Source of the DNA: Escherichia phage vB_EcoP_EP32B
DNA length: 64,000 nucleotides
Strand: one strand, 5' to 3'
Sequence record: OR544955
Notes under the pieces: model-generated
The model's input: the letters and a program-made list of their open reading frames with translations, nothing else
What the model was told of the DNA's origin: nothing
The model's database searches: none
In this document: positions 11,318 to 58,992 of the stretch, piece after piece
Numbering within the stretch: position 1 is the stretch's first letter
Layout of the letters: the number at the start of each line of letters is the position of its first letter
Position numbers and translations under genes: made by a program

Positions 11318-12880
11318 ATGAAATCATTTAAATTAAATCGTGTTCGTTATCAAAACATCATGTCAGTAGGTGGGAATCCTATTGATATCCAATTAGATAA
11401 AGTCCAAAAGACATTAATCACTGGTAAAAATGGCGGTGGTAAATCTACGATGTTAGAAGCCATTACTTTCGGACTTTTCGGTAAACCATTTCGTGATGTT
11501 AAGAAAGGACAAATCATTAATAGCATGAACAAGAAAGAGCTCTTAGTTGAGCTTTGGATGGAATTCGATGATAAAAAATACTTCATTAAACGTGGCCAAA
11601 AGCCCAATATTTTCGAAATCTCCGTTGACGGTGTTCGTCTCGATGAATCTGCCAGCAGTCGTGACTTCCAAGAAGAATTTGAACGTAGCATCGGAATGTC
11701 ATACGCGTCTTTTAAACAAATCGTTGTGCTTGGGACGGCAGGGTATACCCCTTTCATGGCTCTTAGCACCCCTGCTCGTAGAAAGCTTGTTGAAGACTTA
11801 TTAGAAGTTGGCACACTCGCTGAAATGGATAAAATCAATAAGTCTCAAGTTCGCGAACTTAATTCTCAGGGACAAGTTCTTGATGCCAAGAAAGATGGTA
11901 TTATCCAACAAATTAAGATTTATAACGAGAATATCGAACGTCAAAAGAAATTATCTGGTGATAATGTAGCGCGTCTACAGAATATGTATGACGACCTAGC
12001 CAAAGAAGCTCGGTCATTAAAAGCAGAAATCGAAGAAGCTAATGAGCGACTACTTAATATCGTTCTTGATGAAGACCCTACTGAGGCATTCAACAAGATA
12101 GGACAAGAAGCATTCTTGATTAAATCTAAAATTGACTCATATAACAAAGTTATTAAGATGTATCATGATGGCGGTACATGTCCTACTTGTGCATCACAGT
12201 TGCACCAGGGTGACCCTATTGTCTCTAAGATTACCGATAAGCTTCATGAATGTAATCACTCATTCGAGCAACTTACATGTCACAGAGATAATCTGAGTGT
12301 CCTAGTGGACGAATATAGAGCTAATGTCAAGACTAAACAGGACCTTGCATCTGATATTCGTACCAAGAAACAAGCAATGATTGCCACTATTGATAAAGCT
12401 AAGAAAGTTAAAGCTGCAATAGAACAAGCCTCAGCAGAATTTATCGACCATGCCGATGAGATAGCTTTGCTTCAAAAAGAACTTGATAAAATCATTAAAA
12501 CAAAATCGGATATCGTTCTTGAAAAATACCATCGTGGTATTATCACAGATATGTTAAAAGATTCTGGTATTAAAGGTGCTATCATTAAAAAATATGTGCC
12601 TCTGTTCAACAAGCAGATTAACCATTATCTTAAAATCATGGAAGCTGATTACGTGTTTTCTATTGACGAAGAATTCAATGAATCTATAAAATCACGTGGC
12701 CGTGAAGAGTTCAGTTATGCTTCATTTAGTCAAGGCGAAAAAGCGCGTATCGATATCGCATTGTTGTTTACATGGCGAGATATTGCTGAAAAGGTCTCTG
12801 GTGTTAAAATCAACACAACGTGTTCATTATTTCTCACAGAGACCATGACCCACAAGCTTATGGACAACATCTTCAAATGA
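11318..12880 (+). CDS. 46: recombination ATPase gp46 (Rad50/SbcC-like); C-terminus disrupted, H-loop segment continues in another frame to 12918
   Basis: Walker A GKNGGGKST, zinc hook CPTC, signature SQGEKARIDIAL; no Walker B in frame; VFIISHRDHDPQ in other frame. Confidence 0.85.
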   Translation: MKSFKLNRVRYQNIMSVGGNPIDIQLDKVQKTLITGKNGGGKSTMLEAITFGLFGKPFRDVKKGQIINSMNKKELLVELWMEFDDKKYFIKRGQKPNIFEISVDGVRLDESASSRDFQEEFERSIGMSYASFKQIVVLGTAGYTPFMALSTPARRKLVEDLLEVGTLAEMDKINKSQVRELNSQGQVLDAKKDGIIQQIKIYNENIERQKKLSGDNVARLQNMYDDLAKEARSLKAEIEEANERLLNIVLDEDPTEAFNKIGQEAFLIKSKIDSYNKVIKMYHDGGTCPTCASQLHQGDPIVSKITDKLHECNHSFEQLTCHRDNLSVLVDEYRANVKTKQDLASDIRTKKQAMIATIDKAKKVKAAIEQASAEFIDHADEIALLQKELDKIIKTKSDIVLEKYHRGIITDMLKDSGIKGAIIKKYVPLFNKQINHYLKIMEADYVFSIDEEFNESIKSRGREEFSYASFSQGEKARIDIALLFTWRDIAEKVSGVKINTTCSLFLTETMTHKLMDNIFK

Positions 12881-16374: not shown

Positions 16375-19059
16375 ATGAAAGAATTTTACTTAACGGTTGA
16401 ACAGATTGGTGATTCAATTTTTGAACGTTACATCGATTCTAATGGCCGTGAACGTACTCGTGAAGTAGAATATAAACCATCACTGTTTGCTCATTGTCCA
16501 GAAAGTCAGGCTACGAAATATTTCGATATCTACGGTAAGCCGTGTACTCGTAAGTTGTTCGCTAATATGCGTGATGCCTCCCAATGGATTAAACGTATGG
16601 AAGATATCGGACTTGAAGCACTTGGCATGGACGATTTCAAATTGGCGTATTTGTCTGACACTTATAACTATGAAATCAAATACGACCATACAAAAATTCG
16701 TGTGGCTAACTTCGACATCGAAGTAACATCTCCGGACGGGTTCCCTGAGCCGTCACAAGCAAAACATCCGATTGATGCTATCACCCATTATGACTCAATT
16801 GACGACAGGTTCTACGTATTTGATCTATTGAATTCTCCATATGGTAATGTAGAAGAATGGTCTATCGAAATTGCAGCTAAGCTTCAAGAACAAGGTGGTG
16901 ATGAAGTTCCATCCGAAATTATCGATAAAATCATTTATATGCCGTTCGATAACGAAAAAGAATTGTTGATGGAATATCTCAACTTCTGGCAACAGAAAAC
17001 TCCTGTCATTTTGACTGGATGGAACGTTGAGTCATTTGATATTCCATATGTGTATAACCGAATCAAGAATATTTTTGGCGAATCTACTGCGAAACGTTTA
17101 TCACCACATCGTAAAACTCGTGTTAAAGTTATCGAAAACATGTATGGTTCTCGTGAAATCATTACATTGTTCGGTATCTCTGTTCTTGATTATATTGACC
17201 TTTACAAAAAATTCTCTTTTACCAATCAACCGTCGTATTCTCTGGATTACATTTCAGAATTTGAATTGAACGTTGGTAAACTGAAATACGACGGTCCTAT
17301 TTCTAAACTTCGTTATAACATCATCGACGTATATCGTGTATTGCAAATTGATGCTAAACGCCAGTTCATTAACTTGAGTTTGGACATGGGTTATTATGCT
17401 AAGATACAGATTCAATCTGTGTTTAGCCCAATTAAAACATGGGATGCTATTATTTTTAATAGCCTTAAAGAACAAAACAAGGTGATTCCACAAGGTCGTT
17501 CGCATCCAGTTCAACCTTACCCGGGTGCTTTTGTTAAGGAACCTATTCCAAATCGATACAAATATGTAATGAGTTTCGACCTTACATCTCTGTATCCAAG
17601 TATTATTCGCCAAGTGAATATTAGCCCGGAAACAATAGCAGGAACGTTTAAAGTAGCTCCACTGCATGATTATATTAACGCAATCGCTGAACGTCCTTCA
17701 GATGTGTACAGTTGCTCTCCTAACGGCATGATGTATTATAAAGACCGTGACGGTGTTGTTCCAACTGAAATCACTAAGGTCTTTAATCAACGTAAAGAAC
17801 ATAAAGGTTATATGCTTGCAGCTCAACGTAATGGTGAAATAATTAAAGAGGCATTGCATAATCCTAATCTTTCTGTTGACGAACCATTAGATGTTGATTA
17901 TCGTTTCGACTTCAGCGATGAGATTAAAGAAAAGATTAAAAAGTTGTCTGCTAAATCTCTTAATGAAATGTTGTTTAGAGCTCAACGTACTGAAGTTGCA
18001 GGTATGACTGCACAGATTAACCGTAAATTGCTTATCAACTCACTTTATGGTGCACTTGGAAACGTTTGGTTCCGTTATTATGATTTGCGTAATGCTACTG
18101 CAATCACAACATTCGGACAAATGGCTTTACAGTGGATTGAACGTAAAGTTAATGAATATCTGAATGAAGTTTGCGGTACAGAAGGTGAAGCTTTCGTTCT
18201 TTATGGTGATACAGACTCTATTTACGTATCTGCTGATAAAATTATCGATAAGGTTGGTGAATCTAAATTCCGTGATACCAACCATTGGGTAGACTTCTTA
18301 GATAAGTTCGCTCGTGAACGTATGGAACCTGCTATTGATAGAGGTTTCCGTGAAATGTGCGAATACATGAATAATAAGCAACATTTGATGTTCATGGACC
18401 GAGAAGCTATCGCTGGTCCTCCGCTCGGTTCTAAAGGTATTGGTGGATTTTGGACTGGTAAGAAACGTTATGCATTAAACGTGTGGGATATGGAAGGTAC
18501 TCGTTACGCTGAGCCTAAACTCAAAATCATGGGTCTAGAGACTCAGAAATCTTCGACACCTAAAGCAGTACAGAAAGCTCTTAAAGAATGTATTCGTCGT
18601 ATGCTTCAAGAAGGTGAAGAATCATTACAAGAATATTTTAAAGAGTTTGAAAAAGAATTCCGTCAATTGAATTATATTAGCATCGCGTCGGTATCTTCTG
18701 CGAATAACATTGCTAAATATGATGTCGGTGGATTCCCTGGCCCCAAATGTCCGTTCCATATTCGTGGAATTCTGACATATAACCGAGCTATCAAAGGTAA
18801 TATCGATGCACCGCAAGTTGTAGAAGGTGAAAAAGTATATGTTCTGCCTTTACGTGAAGGAAACCCATTCGGTGATAAATGTATCGCATGGCCTTCTGGT
18901 ACGGAAATCACTGATTTAATCAAAGATGATGTACTTCATTGGATGGACTACACGGTTCTCCTTGAGAAGACATTTATTAAACCACTTGAAGGATTCACAT
19001 CAGCAGCTAAACTCGATTACGAGAAGAAAGCATCTCTGTTCGATATGTTTGATTTTTGA
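16375..19059 (+). CDS. 43: DNA polymerase gp43 (family B, RB69-type numbering)
   Basis: 894 aa; Exo I FDIE (D114/E116), D222, YGDTDS, KILINSLYG; strong match to recalled RB69 gp43. Confidence 0.97.
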   Translation: MKEFYLTVEQIGDSIFERYIDSNGRERTREVEYKPSLFAHCPESQATKYFDIYGKPCTRKLFANMRDASQWIKRMEDIGLEALGMDDFKLAYLSDTYNYEIKYDHTKIRVANFDIEVTSPDGFPEPSQAKHPIDAITHYDSIDDRFYVFDLLNSPYGNVEEWSIEIAAKLQEQGGDEVPSEIIDKIIYMPFDNEKELLMEYLNFWQQKTPVILTGWNVESFDIPYVYNRIKNIFGESTAKRLSPHRKTRVKVIENMYGSREIITLFGISVLDYIDLYKKFSFTNQPSYSLDYISEFELNVGKLKYDGPISKLRYNIIDVYRVLQIDAKRQFINLSLDMGYYAKIQIQSVFSPIKTWDAIIFNSLKEQNKVIPQGRSHPVQPYPGAFVKEPIPNRYKYVMSFDLTSLYPSIIRQVNISPETIAGTFKVAPLHDYINAIAERPSDVYSCSPNGMMYYKDRDGVVPTEITKVFNQRKEHKGYMLAAQRNGEIIKEALHNPNLSVDEPLDVDYRFDFSDEIKEKIKKLSAKSLNEMLFRAQRTEVAGMTAQINRKLLINSLYGALGNVWFRYYDLRNATAITTFGQMALQWIERKVNEYLNEVCGTEGEAFVLYGDTDSIYVSADKIIDKVGESKFRDTNHWVDFLDKFARERMEPAIDRGFREMCEYMNNKQHLMFMDREAIAGPPLGSKGIGGFWTGKKRYALNVWDMEGTRYAEPKLKIMGLETQKSSTPKAVQKALKECIRRMLQEGEESLQEYFKEFEKEFRQLNYISIASVSSANNIAKYDVGGFPGPKCPFHIRGILTYNRAIKGNIDAPQVVEGEKVYVLPLREGNPFGDKCIAWPSGTEITDLIKDDVLHWMDYTVLLEKTFIKPLEGFTSAAKLDYEKKASLFDMFDF

Positions 19060-33313: not shown

Positions 33314-33628
33314 ATGGCGCACTTTAATGAATGTTCACAACTTATTTCTGGTGTTGATAAAGCAGAAGAAGCTTATTTTAATGCTCTGATTCACGAAGAT
33401 AAAGACCCACTTCAGGTAATGCTTGATATGCAGAAATCTTTACAGGTTCGTCTGGCAAATGACAAGCCTGAACATAACAAACATCCTGATGAATTGGCTA
33501 CTGCCGGTGATGTTGTTGATTGGCTGCGTAATCAGAAAGATTATATTGATGATGAATTCCGTGAACTGTTGACTTCACTTGGTGGTATGATTATAAATAC
33601 ACCTGTAATTAAACAACAAAGGAGTTAA
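33314..33628 (+). CDS. MazG-like all-alpha NTP pyrophosphatase (gene 56 dCTPase-like), possibly short
   Basis: 104 aa; DDEFRELL motif; position after 61. Confidence 0.45.
   Translation: MAHFNECSQLISGVDKAEEAYFNALIHEDKDPLQVMLDMQKSLQVRLANDKPEHNKHPDELATAGDVVDWLRNQKDYIDDEFRELLTSLGGMIINTPVIKQQRS
33592..33599 (+). promoter_or_regulatory. late promoter TATAAATA for soc
   Basis: exact TATAAATA about 32 nt upstream of soc ATG. Confidence 0.7.
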
Positions 33629-33630
33629 TT

Positions 33631-33774
33631 ATGGGTGGTTATGTAAACATCAAAACCTTTACGCATCCTGCTGGTGAAGGCAAAGAAGTTAAAGGTATGG
33701 AAGTTTCTGTACCGTTTGAGATTTATTCAAACGAACATCGGATTGCTGATTCTCATTACCAAGTAAGTGGTTAA
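33631..33774 (+). CDS. soc: small outer capsid protein Soc, short form (47 aa)
   Basis: MGGYVNIKTF..EVSVPFEIYSNEHRIADSHYQ resembles recalled T4/RB69 Soc N-terminal half. Confidence 0.6.
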   Translation: MGGYVNIKTFTHPAGEGKEVKGMEVSVPFEIYSNEHRIADSHYQVSG

Positions 33775-35138: not shown

Positions 35139-35299
35139 AAGAGAAATTGAAAGAGAAATTCTTACTAGAAATCAAGGAAAAAGACTTTGAGACATGGTAT
35201 CGAATGGTGAAAGGGTTGACATTGCTTTTTAAAGCATCGTTATTCATGTTAGAACAACCTGGTCCTGATGGTCCTTTAGTAGGAAAGCTTAAAAAGTAG
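35135..35299 (+). CDS. hypothetical protein (54 aa)
   Basis: ATGA coupling. Confidence 0.3.
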   Translation: MKEKLKEKFLLEIKEKDFETWYRMVKGLTLLFKASLFMLEQPGPDGPLVGKLKK

Positions 35300-35328
35300 T
35301 TTACATTCCCTCCTCTCGTGTTATGATA
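35299..35328 (+). promoter_or_regulatory. early promoter
   Basis: -35 GTTTACA 35299-305, -10 TATGAT 35322-27. Confidence 0.55.
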
Positions 35329-35354
35329 GGCTTATCTTTAAATGGAGGTCTATC

Positions 35355-35936
35355 ATGACATGTCAATCTGAACTTCAAGAACGCGAATACCTAACAAATC
35401 TGATTGATAGCAAATTCACCCGCCAAGAACAAAACATTCTCTGGGCTTGCACCGATTCTAAGGAAGACCCGGATTTCCACTATGAATTAGACCATCTTGT
35501 TCGTAAGCATATGACTTCTACAGTACCGGTAGAGCTCTACCGTGGTGTAACTCCAGAAGAAGTAGAACGTCTTTCCCTTCTTTCTGTTGGATGCCATTGG
35601 TCTCCTGGACGAGTAACATCGTTCACAACTGATTTCAGTACAGCTCGTCAATTCTCCGGGAGATGGGAATATCAGACGTACACTATTCTTAGTCTCAGGA
35701 ATGCTCCATTCATTTTTGATTACTACCAAAACATGGTTAACATTGTACTCGCCGGAAAGAACCCTAAGCATGTTATGGAAGAAACGCGTGTTGACGTCCT
35801 AGATATGATTGAATCTGAACAAGAGTACATGGTCTCAGGTATCTCTAGATTTGAGATTGTGGAAATTGAAGACTTAGAATATGACCCTTTATCTCGATTA
35901 TACAAAATCATTCATTTGAAAATGTTGAATTTTTAG
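35355..35936 (+). CDS. ADP-ribosyltransferase, ModA/ModB family
   Basis: R-S-E motifs: ELYRG, SFTTD, ESEQEY; 193 aa. Confidence 0.6.
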   Translation: MTCQSELQEREYLTNLIDSKFTRQEQNILWACTDSKEDPDFHYELDHLVRKHMTSTVPVELYRGVTPEEVERLSLLSVGCHWSPGRVTSFTTDFSTARQFSGRWEYQTYTILSLRNAPFIFDYYQNMVNIVLAGKNPKHVMEETRVDVLDMIESEQEYMVSGISRFEIVEIEDLEYDPLSRLYKIIHLKMLNF

Positions 35937-36046
35937 TGTACAAACTCTTCCGATGATGATACTATACCTCTATCAACCACAGGAGAAACCTAAATGTTTA
36001 TGCCGTATAACGAGTGTGAAATTGAAGAAATGGTTCGTCGTGCTCA

Positions 36047-36505
36047 ATGCCCGGATTATCAAGATTAAGTGCAATTGTTCGTAGAAATTGGTCGTCTTCT
36101 GTTCCTGAGACAATGTATCGTGGAATCTCTAAGAAAACTATGGCCACACTCGATGATAAAGGTATTGGTAGTATTATTAAATTTGACAGAGTAATGAGCT
36201 TCAGCCCAGTGTTCGGTGTAGCACGTAACTTTGCTTCGTATAATTTTTACGGAACATTTAATATGTTCTGCATCAAAGATGCACCATTTGCTTTCAACTT
36301 CCGTGAACATATGCTTAACATGATTCTGGCTGCGCCATCTTGTGAGTTCAATGGAGCTTTCCCTGAAGCGACAAGACGGTCTAATGCTAGACTTATATCT
36401 GACGAATGTGAATTTATGCTCCCTATAGGGACTACACTGCGTGTAGATTCTATTATTCAAGATGGAAGTTATACAATCTGGAATCTGTCTATTGTCAGTT
36501 ACTGA
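36047..36505 (+). CDS. ADP-ribosyltransferase paralog; N-terminus apparently frameshifted (RBS and ATG at about 35994 in another frame)
   Basis: MYRG, SFSPV, ECEFML motifs; upstream 24-codon ORF with strong RBS ends at 36069. Confidence 0.55.
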   Translation: MPGLSRLSAIVRRNWSSSVPETMYRGISKKTMATLDDKGIGSIIKFDRVMSFSPVFGVARNFASYNFYGTFNMFCIKDAPFAFNFREHMLNMILAAPSCEFNGAFPEATRRSNARLISDECEFMLPIGTTLRVDSIIQDGSYTIWNLSIVSY

Positions 36506-36658
36506 CTGAATTGGAATAACCGGATGGAACTCAGAACCATTATAACACATAAAAAATTAAAGCATTTTATGAAAAAAGAGTGTACACTACCTGAGGGCAT
36601 GATATTATAAGCTTATCAGCTAAATGACCTTAACGTCCGTAAGACAGAGGAAAATATT

Positions 36659-37405
36659 ATGTTATCAAATAATAAAATTAACAAAATCAATCGTCGTCTT
36701 GACCACACCAGAGCTTCTGCGAAGAGACGCTCTAAGGATTTTAACTTAGACTTTAATTACCTTAAAAACATTCTTGATCAAAAGGTCTGCGCTTACTCAG
36801 GTGAATCTTTTAATAACTCTGTTGAAGGTGAGAAATTATCCTTAGAACGTTTTAATAATGATATAGGCTACATTAAAGGTAATGTTATCCCAGTTAAGAA
36901 AAAATATAACACGGCTCGTTCTGATTTAACACTAGAAGAACTTATTGGGAAACGCGATGCCATTGCAAGACGTATCGCTAATCCTTCTGCCCGTAAAGTA
37001 GAGAAACTTAATCTCGACGAGAAGAAATGGGCCCAAATTAAAAAGGTTTATGGTACTATTTTAAAAATCCGAGCAAAACGTGAAAATCGTGTTAAGCATA
37101 TGGCGAACATGATGAAAAATCAACCTTTATCTAACGAATCTAAACTTAGAATTGTTGCTTTGAAAGCACGCATTAATGGCTCACATCAAGCAGAAGGCCA
37201 TGAACTTACTAAACTCAACGTTCTTCTTAAAGGCTCTGACTGGAAAACTAAAACTAAATTAACTGACGCTGAATCGCTTTTCGATACATATGATAAAGTT
37301 ATCCAAGGTCTGCAACGTTTTGAAAAGATTGGTTTCATTGGTAAATTAAAATTGAAACGTGGCTTACCACTTAGCGCATCATTATTCCAACTGATTAAAG
37401 GTTAA
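36659..37405 (+). CDS. hypothetical basic protein (Srd position); faint HNH-like segment
   Basis: 248-aa ORF. Confidence 0.45.
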   Translation: MLSNNKINKINRRLDHTRASAKRRSKDFNLDFNYLKNILDQKVCAYSGESFNNSVEGEKLSLERFNNDIGYIKGNVIPVKKKYNTARSDLTLEELIGKRDAIARRIANPSARKVEKLNLDEKKWAQIKKVYGTILKIRAKRENRVKHMANMMKNQPLSNESKLRIVALKARINGSHQAEGHELTKLNVLLKGSDWKTKTKLTDAESLFDTYDKVIQGLQRFEKIGFIGKLKLKRGLPLSASLFQLIKG

Positions 37406-37407
37406 TT

Positions 37408-37719
37408 ATGGTTTATGTATATGCAATAGTTTATCGAGATATGGAAGGATTTACTGTCCCGGTTCCACTTGATGAGCATCGTCCTGCAGTATTTTTTAGA
37501 AAGGATATTGCAGATAAAGTTTTCGATACTTTGAAAACACAGTATAAAACAGATTTAAAAATGGGAGTTCTAAGAATGGTCGAAACTCCGCGTAAGTTCT
37601 GGTTTAATAAGCTTGAAATGAAACACGTTAAACTAGATGCGGAGACGCAAAGATTGTATCAACGAATCCTGGACACAGGCCGTATTGTTAGTATTCCAAT
37701 TGCAGGGACTTTACGATGA
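37408..37719 (+). CDS. hypothetical protein
   Basis: 103-aa ORF coupled to dda. Confidence 0.5.
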   Translation: MVYVYAIVYRDMEGFTVPVPLDEHRPAVFFRKDIADKVFDTLKTQYKTDLKMGVLRMVETPRKFWFNKLEMKHVKLDAETQRLYQRILDTGRIVSIPIAGTLR

Positions 37720-39029
37720 CATTTGATGATTTGACTGAAGGCCAGAAAAACGCCTTCAACGTTGTTATGGAAGCTATTAAAGAAAAGAAACATCATGTAA
37801 CTATTAATGGACCTGCTGGTACAGGTAAAACAACCCTTACTAGATTCATCGTTGAAGCCCTTATTTCTTCTGGAGAATCAGGTATTATTTTAGCAGCCCC
37901 TACACATGCTGCTAAAAAGGTTCTAAGCAAACTTGCAGGTCAAGAAGCATCGACTATTCATAGCATTCTTAAAATCAACCCAACTACATACGAAGAAAAC
38001 GTATTGTTTGAACAGAAAAAGGTTCCCGACTTAGCCTTGTGTCGTGTACTGTTATTTGATGAAGCGTCAATGTGCGACCGTTCTCTGTTTAAAATAATGT
38101 TAGCTAGTATCCCTAAATGGTGCACAGTAATTGGAATCGGCGACCGATGCCAGATTCGTCCGGTAGACCCAGGCGAATCAACTGCGTATCTAAGTCCTTT
38201 CTTCACTCACAAAGACTTCGTGCAATGCAACCTTACAGAAGTTAAACGTAGCAATGCACCAATTATTGATGTTGCGACCGATATTCGTAATGGCAAATGG
38301 ATTTACGATAAAGTAGTTGATGGACACGGTGTTCATGGATATACAGACCTTAAATCATATATGATGAACTATTTTAACGTCGTTAAAACTCCTGAAGACC
38401 TTTTCGAAAATCGAATGATGGCATTCACAAATAAGTCGGTGGACAAGTTAAATTCAATTATTCGCCGAAAACTTCTTGAAACAGAAAAACCATTTATTAA
38501 AGACGAAGTCATTGTTCTACAAGAGCCATTTACTAAGACATATAAGCTAGACGGTAAAAATATGACCGAAATGCTTTTCAATAATGGGCAATTCGTTCGT
38601 ATTCGAGATGCTGTAGAAACGTCTACATTCGTTAAAGCACGTGGCGTTTCAGGCGAATATATGATACGATACTGGAATCTTACAGTAGAAACATATGGCG
38701 ATGATGAAGAATACGTCCGAGAGGATATAAAGGTTATTTCTTCTGAAGAAGAGCTTTATAAATTCAATTTGTTTTTGGCTAAGACCGCAGAAACATACAA
38801 ATTCTGGAATAAAGGTGGTAAAGCTCCATGGAGCGAATTCTGGGATGCTAAACGTATGTTCACTAAGGTGAAGGCACTACCAGTATCAACCTTCCATAAG
38901 GCCCAGGGTATGTCTGTTGACACGGCCTTTGTTTATACACCGTGTATCCATTATGCTGATTCAGAATTAGCTAAACAGTTATTGTATGTCGGCACGACTC
39001 GTGGTCGTTTTGACGTCCATTTTATTTGA
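37716..39029 (+). CDS. dda: DNA helicase Dda (SF1B)
   Basis: 437 aa, Walker A GPAGTGKTT, Walker B LLFDEASM; recalled T4 Dda match. Confidence 0.95.
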   Translation: MTFDDLTEGQKNAFNVVMEAIKEKKHHVTINGPAGTGKTTLTRFIVEALISSGESGIILAAPTHAAKKVLSKLAGQEASTIHSILKINPTTYEENVLFEQKKVPDLALCRVLLFDEASMCDRSLFKIMLASIPKWCTVIGIGDRCQIRPVDPGESTAYLSPFFTHKDFVQCNLTEVKRSNAPIIDVATDIRNGKWIYDKVVDGHGVHGYTDLKSYMMNYFNVVKTPEDLFENRMMAFTNKSVDKLNSIIRRKLLETEKPFIKDEVIVLQEPFTKTYKLDGKNMTEMLFNNGQFVRIRDAVETSTFVKARGVSGEYMIRYWNLTVETYGDDEEYVREDIKVISSEEELYKFNLFLAKTAETYKFWNKGGKAPWSEFWDAKRMFTKVKALPVSTFHKAQGMSVDTAFVYTPCIHYADSELAKQLLYVGTTRGRFDVHFI

Positions 39030-54535: not shown

Positions 54536-54623
54536 AATCATTTAAAGAACGTTTAGAAATGAAGTTCCTGAAATCTGTTGGCAAACTCTGGTTATTCCTG
54601 GAGTTCGTCATTACTCTAAAGAT

Positions 54624-57375: not shown

Positions 57376-57408
57376 ATTATAAAAAAGGGACCGAAGTCCC
57401 TTCTCCTT
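57376..57408 (-). promoter_or_regulatory. gene 38 translation initiation region: SD separated from AUG by a UUCG hairpin
   Basis: mRNA UAAGGAGAA GGGACUUCGGUCCC UUUUUUAUAAU AUG. Confidence 0.65.
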
Positions 57409-58992
57409 ATGCTAAACGAACGATATAGTTAAAAGCAACGTTTTTAACTGTGTTTTCTGTATTTCCTGTGGCATTTACAGTTATTGTATGTCCATGGGAA
57501 CCAATTGCAACAGTATGAGAATGAGCACCAATACCTACCGAATGGGTATGAGCGCCAATACCCACAGTATGAGCATGGTTACCCGTGGTACTTGTGGTTC
57601 CTGACCAAGAGTGTGTATGGTTACCTTCTGAAGAAGTTTTGGCTATATTCGACCCTGCAGTAGCACCGTTCACGGTTCCAGTGAATTTAGAGCACTATGG
57701 TTATGAGACTTAATACCATCTGCTTCTGTACTTAATACAGCACGCCCAGATGGTTTACCTTTAATCGTTTGCCCACGCATATCAGGCAGAGAGCCGGAAG
57801 GATACACCGCAGCTAACTTAGGATACAAGCCAGCATCAAATGTTTGACCTTCCATTATGGCATAACCTTCAGGAGGTGTATCAGTAGGCCATGGAATCGG
57901 AGCACCAATTGGGTAACTCGACACAATATCCGTCTTAAGGTTATTTATTGTGGTATTCAAGTTAGCAAAATTACCAGAACCGCCGGTGATATTACCATCA
58001 GTACCAATAATTGTCCTAATTGCATACGGTAATTAGGAGAAATGCGACTATGACTAGTTATAACAACAAGTTTATTATCATTATCAACGGTCACCATATT
58101 ACCGCCAGCACCATCATCACCTAACGTAACAGAATGGCGCATTTGAACCATACCGTTAATAGTGGTTCATTTTACCACCAGCATTGTACCCGATATGGGT
58201 TTGTCCGTCTCCAGCATTGTTATTATCAGCTTGTGTTTGAACCCTTGGTCTTCTGAACGTCCAAATATACCTTTACGAGTACTACGGAAACTGTCAGGAG
58301 TAATAGAAGCAACAGAATTCCAATTACCTACTAAATCATAAACTCCTTGCTTAATATATTTTAAGCCAGTAGCAGCATCCCCCAAAGCAATATATCTTTC
58401 TCCCATTGGAGTAGGAGAGCCGTAGTTATTGGTATTTTCGTCAGCAGTAATTGTGCCAATAGCAAGTGAACGACGTAATACCATTGCTCCATCATTACGA
58501 AGACCCATTAATTTAGTAGTAAGTATATTTCCGGTCCACCAAGAAATTTCATCATTCTTACCAGTTTGAGCTGAAGCGATTTCATGGTAAATAGTTCCGC
58601 CTGATTTAGCTCGAACTTTACGAAGATAGTTTATACCATTTTCTTCACCTGTTCCAGGATAAACATATTGAACTAATGACTGCGAATCGTATTGTCCAAA
58701 TGCTTTTGTGTCCAAAACAATGGTTTTCGTATTAACTTGCGGAGCAGAAACTATACCATTAGCGGAGTTAATATTGCCGGACGCAGAAATATTACCTGCG
58801 TTGAGTTACATTACCGTTAATATCCCCGCCCTTAGCAAAGCCTAGGCTAATAATATTACCGAGGTCATCTTTAGTAAAAAGAGTTCGATCTTTTAAGTTT
58901 ATCGCTAATTCGCCTTCGGCTAATTGTGCTGCAGTAGGATTAACTCCTGCTACTTTGCTTCTTTTAAATTGTATCTGTTTTAATGTAGCCAT
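57407..58992 (-). pseudogene. 37: distal tail fiber gene 37 (T4 type), reading frame broken into at least five segments
   Basis: N-term [13 protein letters not shown]; internal [23 protein letters not shown]; His-box C-term [22 protein letters not shown]; frame changes near 58790, 58235, 58155, 57670. Confidence 0.8.

Follow-up and report, generated by a model that had tools for sequence, protein, structure and literature searches.

A deletion separates the start of modA from its catalytic body, beside an intact modB, in an RB69-like phage sequence

Background

The ModA and ModB proteins of phage T4 are textbook host-takeover enzymes, and EF-Tu is among the host targets of ModB. T4 ModA (NP_049635) ADP-ribosylates Arg265 of both alpha subunits of RNA polymerase (PMC2988021), and T4 ModB (NP_049636) acts on ribosomal proteins S1 and L2 and on other translation factors, both by ADP-ribosylation and by RNAylation (PMC10468400). 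The T-even ADP-ribosyltransferases (ARTs) also have a role in evasion of the Mokosh defence, and a ModA orthologue was flagged in phage Bas37 in this connection (bioRxiv 10.1101/2025.11.20.689424).

The closest described counterparts of the locus considered here are those of phages RB69 (ModB and ModA, NP_861709 and NP_861708), AV116 and E. coli O157 typing phage 3 (O157tp3), which share its backbone at the genus level with 96-99% DNA identity. The DNA analysed is a stretch of 64,000 nucleotides from the record of Escherichia phage vB_EcoP_EP32B (OR544955), called the window below. Gene order and ModB length are the same in the window as in these Mosigvirus relatives, and the body of ModA is 98-99% identical in protein sequence; however, their modA is intact, whereas that of the window lacks 97 bp and is frameshifted.

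The comparison with T4 is more distant. The window modA and T4 ModA belong to the same family of about 200 aa, share the R-S-ExE residues (with R72 and E163/E165 aligned) and occupy the same place between modB and srd, and identity between T4 ModA and the RB69-type catalytic core is 35-36%. The RB69-type "ModA" scores 109 bits against T4 ModB and 72 bits against T4 ModA, and its N-terminal motif, EQSVLWQCME, is ModB-like. The window ModB is 38% identical to T4 ModB over 160 aa by BLASTP, which returned no match between it and T4 ModA. It has 193 aa against the 207 of T4 ModB; its R63/G64 align with R73/G74 of the T4 protein, conservation extends to the S and ExE columns, and its host targets and any RNAylation in Mosigvirus are presumed. 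The labels ModA and ModB in Mosigvirus, together with these presumed targets, therefore rest on synteny rather than on demonstrated orthology. The spacing of the genes also differs: the two T4 genes share 4 nt, an overlap suggestive of translational coupling, whereas in the RB69-like phages modB and modA lie 57 nt apart (35937-35993 in the window) and modA has a strong Shine-Dalgarno (SD) sequence of its own.

Gene order around modB and modA

The window comes from an RB69-like Mosigvirus of the T-even type, and its + strand carries soc, mrh, modB, modA, srd, dda.1 and dda in that order (Table 1). RB69 and AV116 are annotated soc, mrh, modA.2, modB, modA, srd, dda.1, dda, the T4 order is the same, and the synteny of the T-even early region (mrh, modA.2, modB, modA, srd, dda.1, dda) was recovered. 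When positions 35200-36700 were compared by megablast with 50,697 phage records, 158 matched, nearly all of them Escherichia/Shigella Mosigvirus phages with 95-99% identity and annotated modB, modA and srd. The closest relative is O157tp3, with 97.9% identity over 24 kb.

An early-type sigma-70 promoter-like site lies upstream of modB (TTTACA, 16 nt, TATGAT, with TG before the -10 hexamer; a consensus match only), and another precedes srd. Because srd has this promoter-like site of its own, it is possibly independent of read-through from modA, and polar effects of the modA lesion described below would not be expected. Two further open reading frames in the region, an antisense one at 36065-36550 (161 aa) and a third-frame one at 35953-36084, have no family matches and were set aside as spurious.

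Table 1. Features of the modB-modA region and deletions in the window
Feature	Position	Strand	Basis or detail
Promoter-like site 5' of modB, early-type sigma-70	35300..35327	+	consensus scan, 10/12 matches
modB, intact, 193 aa, Arg-specific ADP-ribosyltransferase	35355..35936	+	ORF; PHROG 832, E 5.9e-38
Orphaned modA 5' end	35982..36068	+	GGAG 35982-35985, ATG 35994, codons 1-24, TAA 36066-36068
modA body, 152-aa ORF, -1 (+2) frame relative to leader	36047..36505	+	ORF; PHROG 832, E 1.9e-28
modA deletion junction, 97 bp missing	36065..36066	+	alignment with RB69 and AV116
Promoter-like site 5' of srd	36581..36608	+	consensus scan; TGTACA, 16 nt, TATTAT, with TG
srd, intact, 248 aa	36659..37405	+	ORF; synteny with RB69 and T4 annotation
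dda.1, 103-aa ORF	37408-37719	+	ORF; synteny with RB69 and T4
dda, 437-aa helicase	37716-39029	+	ORF; synteny with RB69 and T4
gp46 (SbcC/Rad50-like recombination nuclease subunit)	11318-12880		88-bp deletion, junction 12816/12817
gp43 (DNA polymerase)	16375-19059		9 aa lost, deletion at 17321-17332
gp56 (dCTPase)	33314-33774 (with soc)		residues 93-173 lost, junction 33589/33590
soc, adjoining gene 56	junction ~33762		in-frame loss of 31 aa
gp37 (distal long-tail-fibre)	57389-58990	-	five deletions: 247, 334, 722, 43 and 350 bp
Further deletion	1540		216 bp
Further deletion	5527		298 bp
Further deletion	6216		28 bp
Further deletion	11165		14 bp
Further deletion	19395		160 bp
Further deletion	30920		24 bp
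Further deletion	31073		4 bp
Further deletion	31458		12 bp
Further deletion	45615		16 bp
Further deletion	49977		14 bp
Further deletion	54557-54584		~200 bp

Two Mod-type reading frames

A first-pass annotation of this DNA had proposed two tandem ART paralogues in 35355-36505, with the body of the second from 36047 onward, had ascribed to both the Arg, Ser and Glu-x-Glu motifs of ModA/ModB-type ARTs, and had suggested a profile search against ART families. These proposals hold up well: the ORFs lie where they were placed, on the + strand at 35355-35936 (193 aa) and 36047-36505 (152 aa), the motifs were located in columns that are invariant with T4 ModA and T4 ModB, and the profile search found similarity of both ORFs to PHROG 832 ("RNA polymerase ADP-ribosylase"). 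The Pfam family PF26816 (Mod_ADP_RT) is precomputed on an identical ModB and on the neighbouring 202-aa ModA in eight independent contigs, and is also recorded for a ModA that shares 98% identity with the window body. Local scans with Pfam-A and NCBIfam gave no match for either ORF; the local Pfam copy is presumably older than PF26816. Taken with the fold of a relative (see below), the family matches and catalytic residues indicate that both ORFs are Mod-type phage ADP-ribosyltransferase genes of an already known kind.

In ModB, the motifs are YRG at residues 62-64 (35538-35546; R63), SFTT at 89-92 (35619-35630; S89) and E155-Q-E157 (EQE, residues 155-157) at 35817-35825; in the modA body they are YRG at 36116-36124, SFSP at 36197-36208 and ECE at 36404-36412. 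The R of YRG, the first S of SF(T/S)x and both E residues of E-x-E are invariant among T4 ModA, T4 ModB, the window ModB and the modA body, so that both ORFs carry the R-S-ExE signature of Arg-specific ARTs. The YRG arginine is in the column of T4 ModB R73, and the R73A and R73A/G74A proteins are inactive (PMC10468400). Likewise, the E-x-E column includes T4 ModA E165, which is catalytic, the E165A protein being inactive (PMC11404850).

A structural comparison was made with a full-length ModA that is 98% identical to the window body (P0001), for which the AlphaFold2 model has a pLDDT of 93.7 and a pTM of 0.88. Foldseek found 96 matches to this model in the PDB with E <= 0.001, and the best 50 of the 96 are all R-S-E clade ARTs or ART-fold toxins or effectors. 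The matches include C3 (C3bot), iota Ia, CDTa, HopU1, Vis and Certhrax, with Foldseek E of about 1e-5, probability 1.00 and TM of 0.35-0.51; these are bacterial toxins or effectors rather than phage early proteins, and their sequence identity to the relative is only 9-17%. A sequence search of the PDB gave chance-level matches only. The ART fold, with N-terminal helices and a beta-sandwich core, is thus that of the modelled full-length relative.

The modB gene matches RB69 modB in length and position, and contigs in 47 blocks of a public collection encode the identical 193-aa protein, which carries PF26816. A complete family member can be described as a single ORF of about 190-207 aa with the N-terminal motif EQSxLWxC...K, and ModB has both the length and the motif (as EQNILWAC). 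The modB gene should work as it does in the relatives.

The deletion in modA

The start of modA is present downstream of modB but is separated from the rest of the gene. A GGAG lies 8 nt 5' of ATG 35994, a second in-frame ATG follows at 36000, and the frame runs for 24 codons, MFMPYNECEIEEMVRRAQCPDYQD, before the TAA. AV116 and RB69 modA begin with the same 24 codons, and the two-frame pattern is judged not to be chance because these codons form the true modA 5' end in all relatives. The body lies in the other frame, with its first in-frame ATG at 36047 and native residues 57-202 from 36065 onward, and is 99% identical to residues 57-202 of AV116 ModA. An SD sequence was looked for before ATG 36047 and none was found; the 152-aa product is not on record by exact look-up.

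The modA genes of RB69 and AV116 run uninterrupted for 201-203 codons straight through the break. The 97 bp missing from the window comprise codons 25-56 and one T of a TTT run at codon 56/57, and their loss puts the body out of frame and gives rise to the TAA. The first-pass annotation had described the same arrangement as a displaced start, with a strong ribosome-binding site and ATG at about 35994 out of frame with the body and a stop at 36067-36069. The ribosome-binding site, the ATG and the change of frame are as described; the stop is one nucleotide earlier, at 36066-36068, and the "displaced start" as a gene architecture gives way to a 97-bp deletion. Alignment with RB69 and AV116, the means it had suggested for finding the missing N-terminal segment, located that segment as codons 25-56 plus 1 nt. 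We interpret the displaced start as a deletion scar that leaves the original start orphaned, and not as an evolved arrangement. The relevance to host takeover that had been ascribed to both enzymes remains for modB and is withdrawn for the window copy of modA, broken as it is by the deletion.

The deletion is unique to this sequence among the collections searched. A search with the 96 bases around the junction matched 153 phage records, and a record with the junction in one piece would have ranked at the top; none of the best 25 of the 153 has it, all of them matching in two pieces that span 193 bp. The modA gene is intact in phage EP32a (vB_EcoM_EP32a, OR544954), O157tp3, RB69 and AV116 and in the eight contigs that encode the identical ModB. 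An exact search for the 31-mer across the junction found it absent from IMG/VR, the JGI metagenomes and the GTDB genomes, and a nearby 41-mer specific to the window had no match in IMG/VR.

The protein would be severely affected. Thirteen clusters of homologues were collected, all with PF26816 and with lengths of 185-204 aa (mostly 200-204 aa), apart from one fragment of 83 aa that sits on a 660-nt contig; the 185-aa cluster has an internal gap. In the alignment of the homologues, the deleted segment holds the most conserved N-terminal motif, EQSxLWQCMENKPD, and the near-invariant positions lost are E38, Q39, L42, W43, C45, K49 and D51. Mapped onto the P0001 model, the missing residues take in helix 3 (36-47) in its entirety, the greater part of helix 2 (20-33) and one half of helix 4 (51-63); the frameshift also cuts helix 1 off from the body. 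Translation from ATG 36047 would yield a product without any of the N-terminal helical region, in which the most conserved motif lies. Measured against the complete members (an ORF of about 190-207 aa with the N-terminal motif), modA falls short, with codons 25-56 gone and the frame broken. Full-length ModA cannot, to judge from its reading frames, be made from the window gene; the second enzyme is most probably not made in functional form, and ModA activity would be lost. The window modA is best regarded as a disrupted family member, a pseudogene-like remnant.

Deletions elsewhere in the window

Compared with O157tp3, EP32a and RB69, the window shows about 22 clean deletions besides that of modA, with sizes of 4-722 bp; no insertion of at least 4 bp is specific to it relative to these three. 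The junctions seen against O157tp3 recur against EP32a and RB69, and 23 annotated genes lose sequence. In gene 46, the Walker B region (LIMDEV...) is lost and the frame is shifted. The segment is kept in other phage records among the matches listed, and EP32a lacks 89 bp at the same site, its gene 46 being annotated in two pieces. Since the deletion recurs within 1 nt in EP32a, which was deposited independently, it has a cause that is shared beyond this record.

With about 1.7 kb lost, gene 37 measures about 1.6 kb instead of about 3.3 kb, and the longest ORF left is at most 182 aa. In EP32a, gene 37 is collapsed too, in a different way. Gene 56 is essential in T4; on either side of its deletion, the window matches several relatives at 100% identity, and these have 250 bp more. 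The polymerase, gp43, is otherwise identical to RB69 gp43 at 893 of 894 positions and has lost ESNHQRYIS (RB69 314-322), which immediately precedes the Exo III motif YNIIDV; each phage record among the matches listed has 27 more bases at this junction. The gp56, gp37 and gp43 junctions were not found in one piece in the phage collection. The further deletions of Table 1 strike a thioredoxin-neighbour ORF, an nrdH-adjacent ORF, a kpsF-like isomerase, gp61.2-like ORFs, an RB69ORF003c-like gene, denB and others.

The substitutions present a very different picture. Of 1125 in total, 938 are at codon position 3, and 933 are synonymous as against 161 nonsynonymous, with no nonsense change. The backbone seems to have been shaped by purifying selection, and the substitutions look natural. 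The deletions overlaid on it are probably recent, non-selective and non-biological in cause, because no viable phage could carry deletions that wreck gp37, gp56 and gp46.

Origin of the modA lesion

We consider it likely that the modA lesion is a defect of this sequence, of one kind with the other deletions. It is assigned to such a defect, and not to biology specific to modA, because about 22 like deletions are present, several in essential genes. A non-biological origin is the most likely one, and selection acting on modA is a less likely cause than damage to the sequence. The proposed course is as follows. modB and modA are early genes for small Arg-specific mono-ADP-ribosyltransferases of the R-S-ExE type, which use NAD on host proteins soon after infection. 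The 97 bp would have dropped out of modA through assembly or consensus drop-outs, or through other non-biological editing of the record. A ribosome loading at the SD and ATG 35994 reads 24 native codons and halts at the TAA, and the catalytic body is left in the -1 frame without a ribosome-binding site of its own.

The main alternative, which we view as unlikely, is that the mutation is genuine and that the phage is a natural modA-null Mosigvirus. ModA would then be dispensable, and its loss might even be favoured if the protein were toxic or recognised by the host. In T4 the shut-off of early transcription is not markedly affected when modA is deleted; the gene is dispensable there, so that a true null would be viable, and its product is highly toxic to E. 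coli (PMC2988021). The single-base indels elsewhere in the window are intergenic, so that its accuracy at the base level looks good, and the recurrence of the gp46 deletion in EP32a weighs against the defect reading for at least that deletion. However, the modA junction is absent from the related phage records (the best 25 of 153) and from every other collection searched, and it occurs together with about 22 deletions, including those of gp37, gp56 and gp46, that are incompatible with a viable phage. A slipped-strand origin could in principle be read from the closest relatives, in which the endpoints lie one base away from the copies of a direct repeat of 6 bp (CAAGAT), themselves 96 bp apart. 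This was rejected as evidence: the loss is 97 bp and not the 96 expected from a slip, and 1.8% of random deletions attain the repeat score of 6 that was obtained at the one-base offset, which is unremarkable in a test that took in 17 deletions. Direct-repeat homology at the deletion endpoints showed no excess over randomly placed deletions. If a natural modA-null Mosigvirus did exist, it would be a modestly useful comparator for questions of RNAylation and Mokosh evasion.

The N-terminal helices of C3-like ARTs pack on the core, which bears on a second and highly improbable alternative, namely that an active 152-aa ModA comprising only the catalytic core is made by re-initiation at ATG 36047 after the leader stop. 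The leader SD is strong, the stop is 17 nt 3' of ATG 36047 and within back-scanning distance, and none of the R, S and ExE residues is lost. Against this, ATG 36047 has no SD sequence, the full-length family members found (the 83-aa fragment aside) all have at least 185 aa, and the product would be without helices 1-4 of the model and without the best-conserved N-terminal motif. We give similarly little credence to a real deletion in a lineage that lacks full-length ModA and perhaps makes a core-only 152-aa ART with altered targets, or, more widely, to a multiply deleted T-even genome complemented by co-infecting relatives. Programmed -1 ribosomal frameshifting, joining leader to body for regulated synthesis of ModA, is almost certainly not the explanation: the two frames do overlap at 36026-36065, where a shift would give a fused product, but no X XXY YYZ slippery heptamer occurs in 35994-36066, the two-frame layout is seen in none of the relatives examined, whose modA is a single uninterrupted ORF longer by 97 bases, and the fused product would still be without residues 25-56.

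With damage to the sequence as the favoured reading, a gene of this window that looks split, truncated or shifted should first be compared with its counterparts in relatives and only then interpreted biologically, because the 64-kb window holds about 20 comparable lesions, several of them in essential genes. Small deletions in modA, real or artefactual, do occur in public records: the 185-aa ModA of Escherichia phage vB_EcoM-ZQ3 (P0002) has an internal gap of 17 residues (APFAFNFREHMLNMILA) in the catalytic domain.
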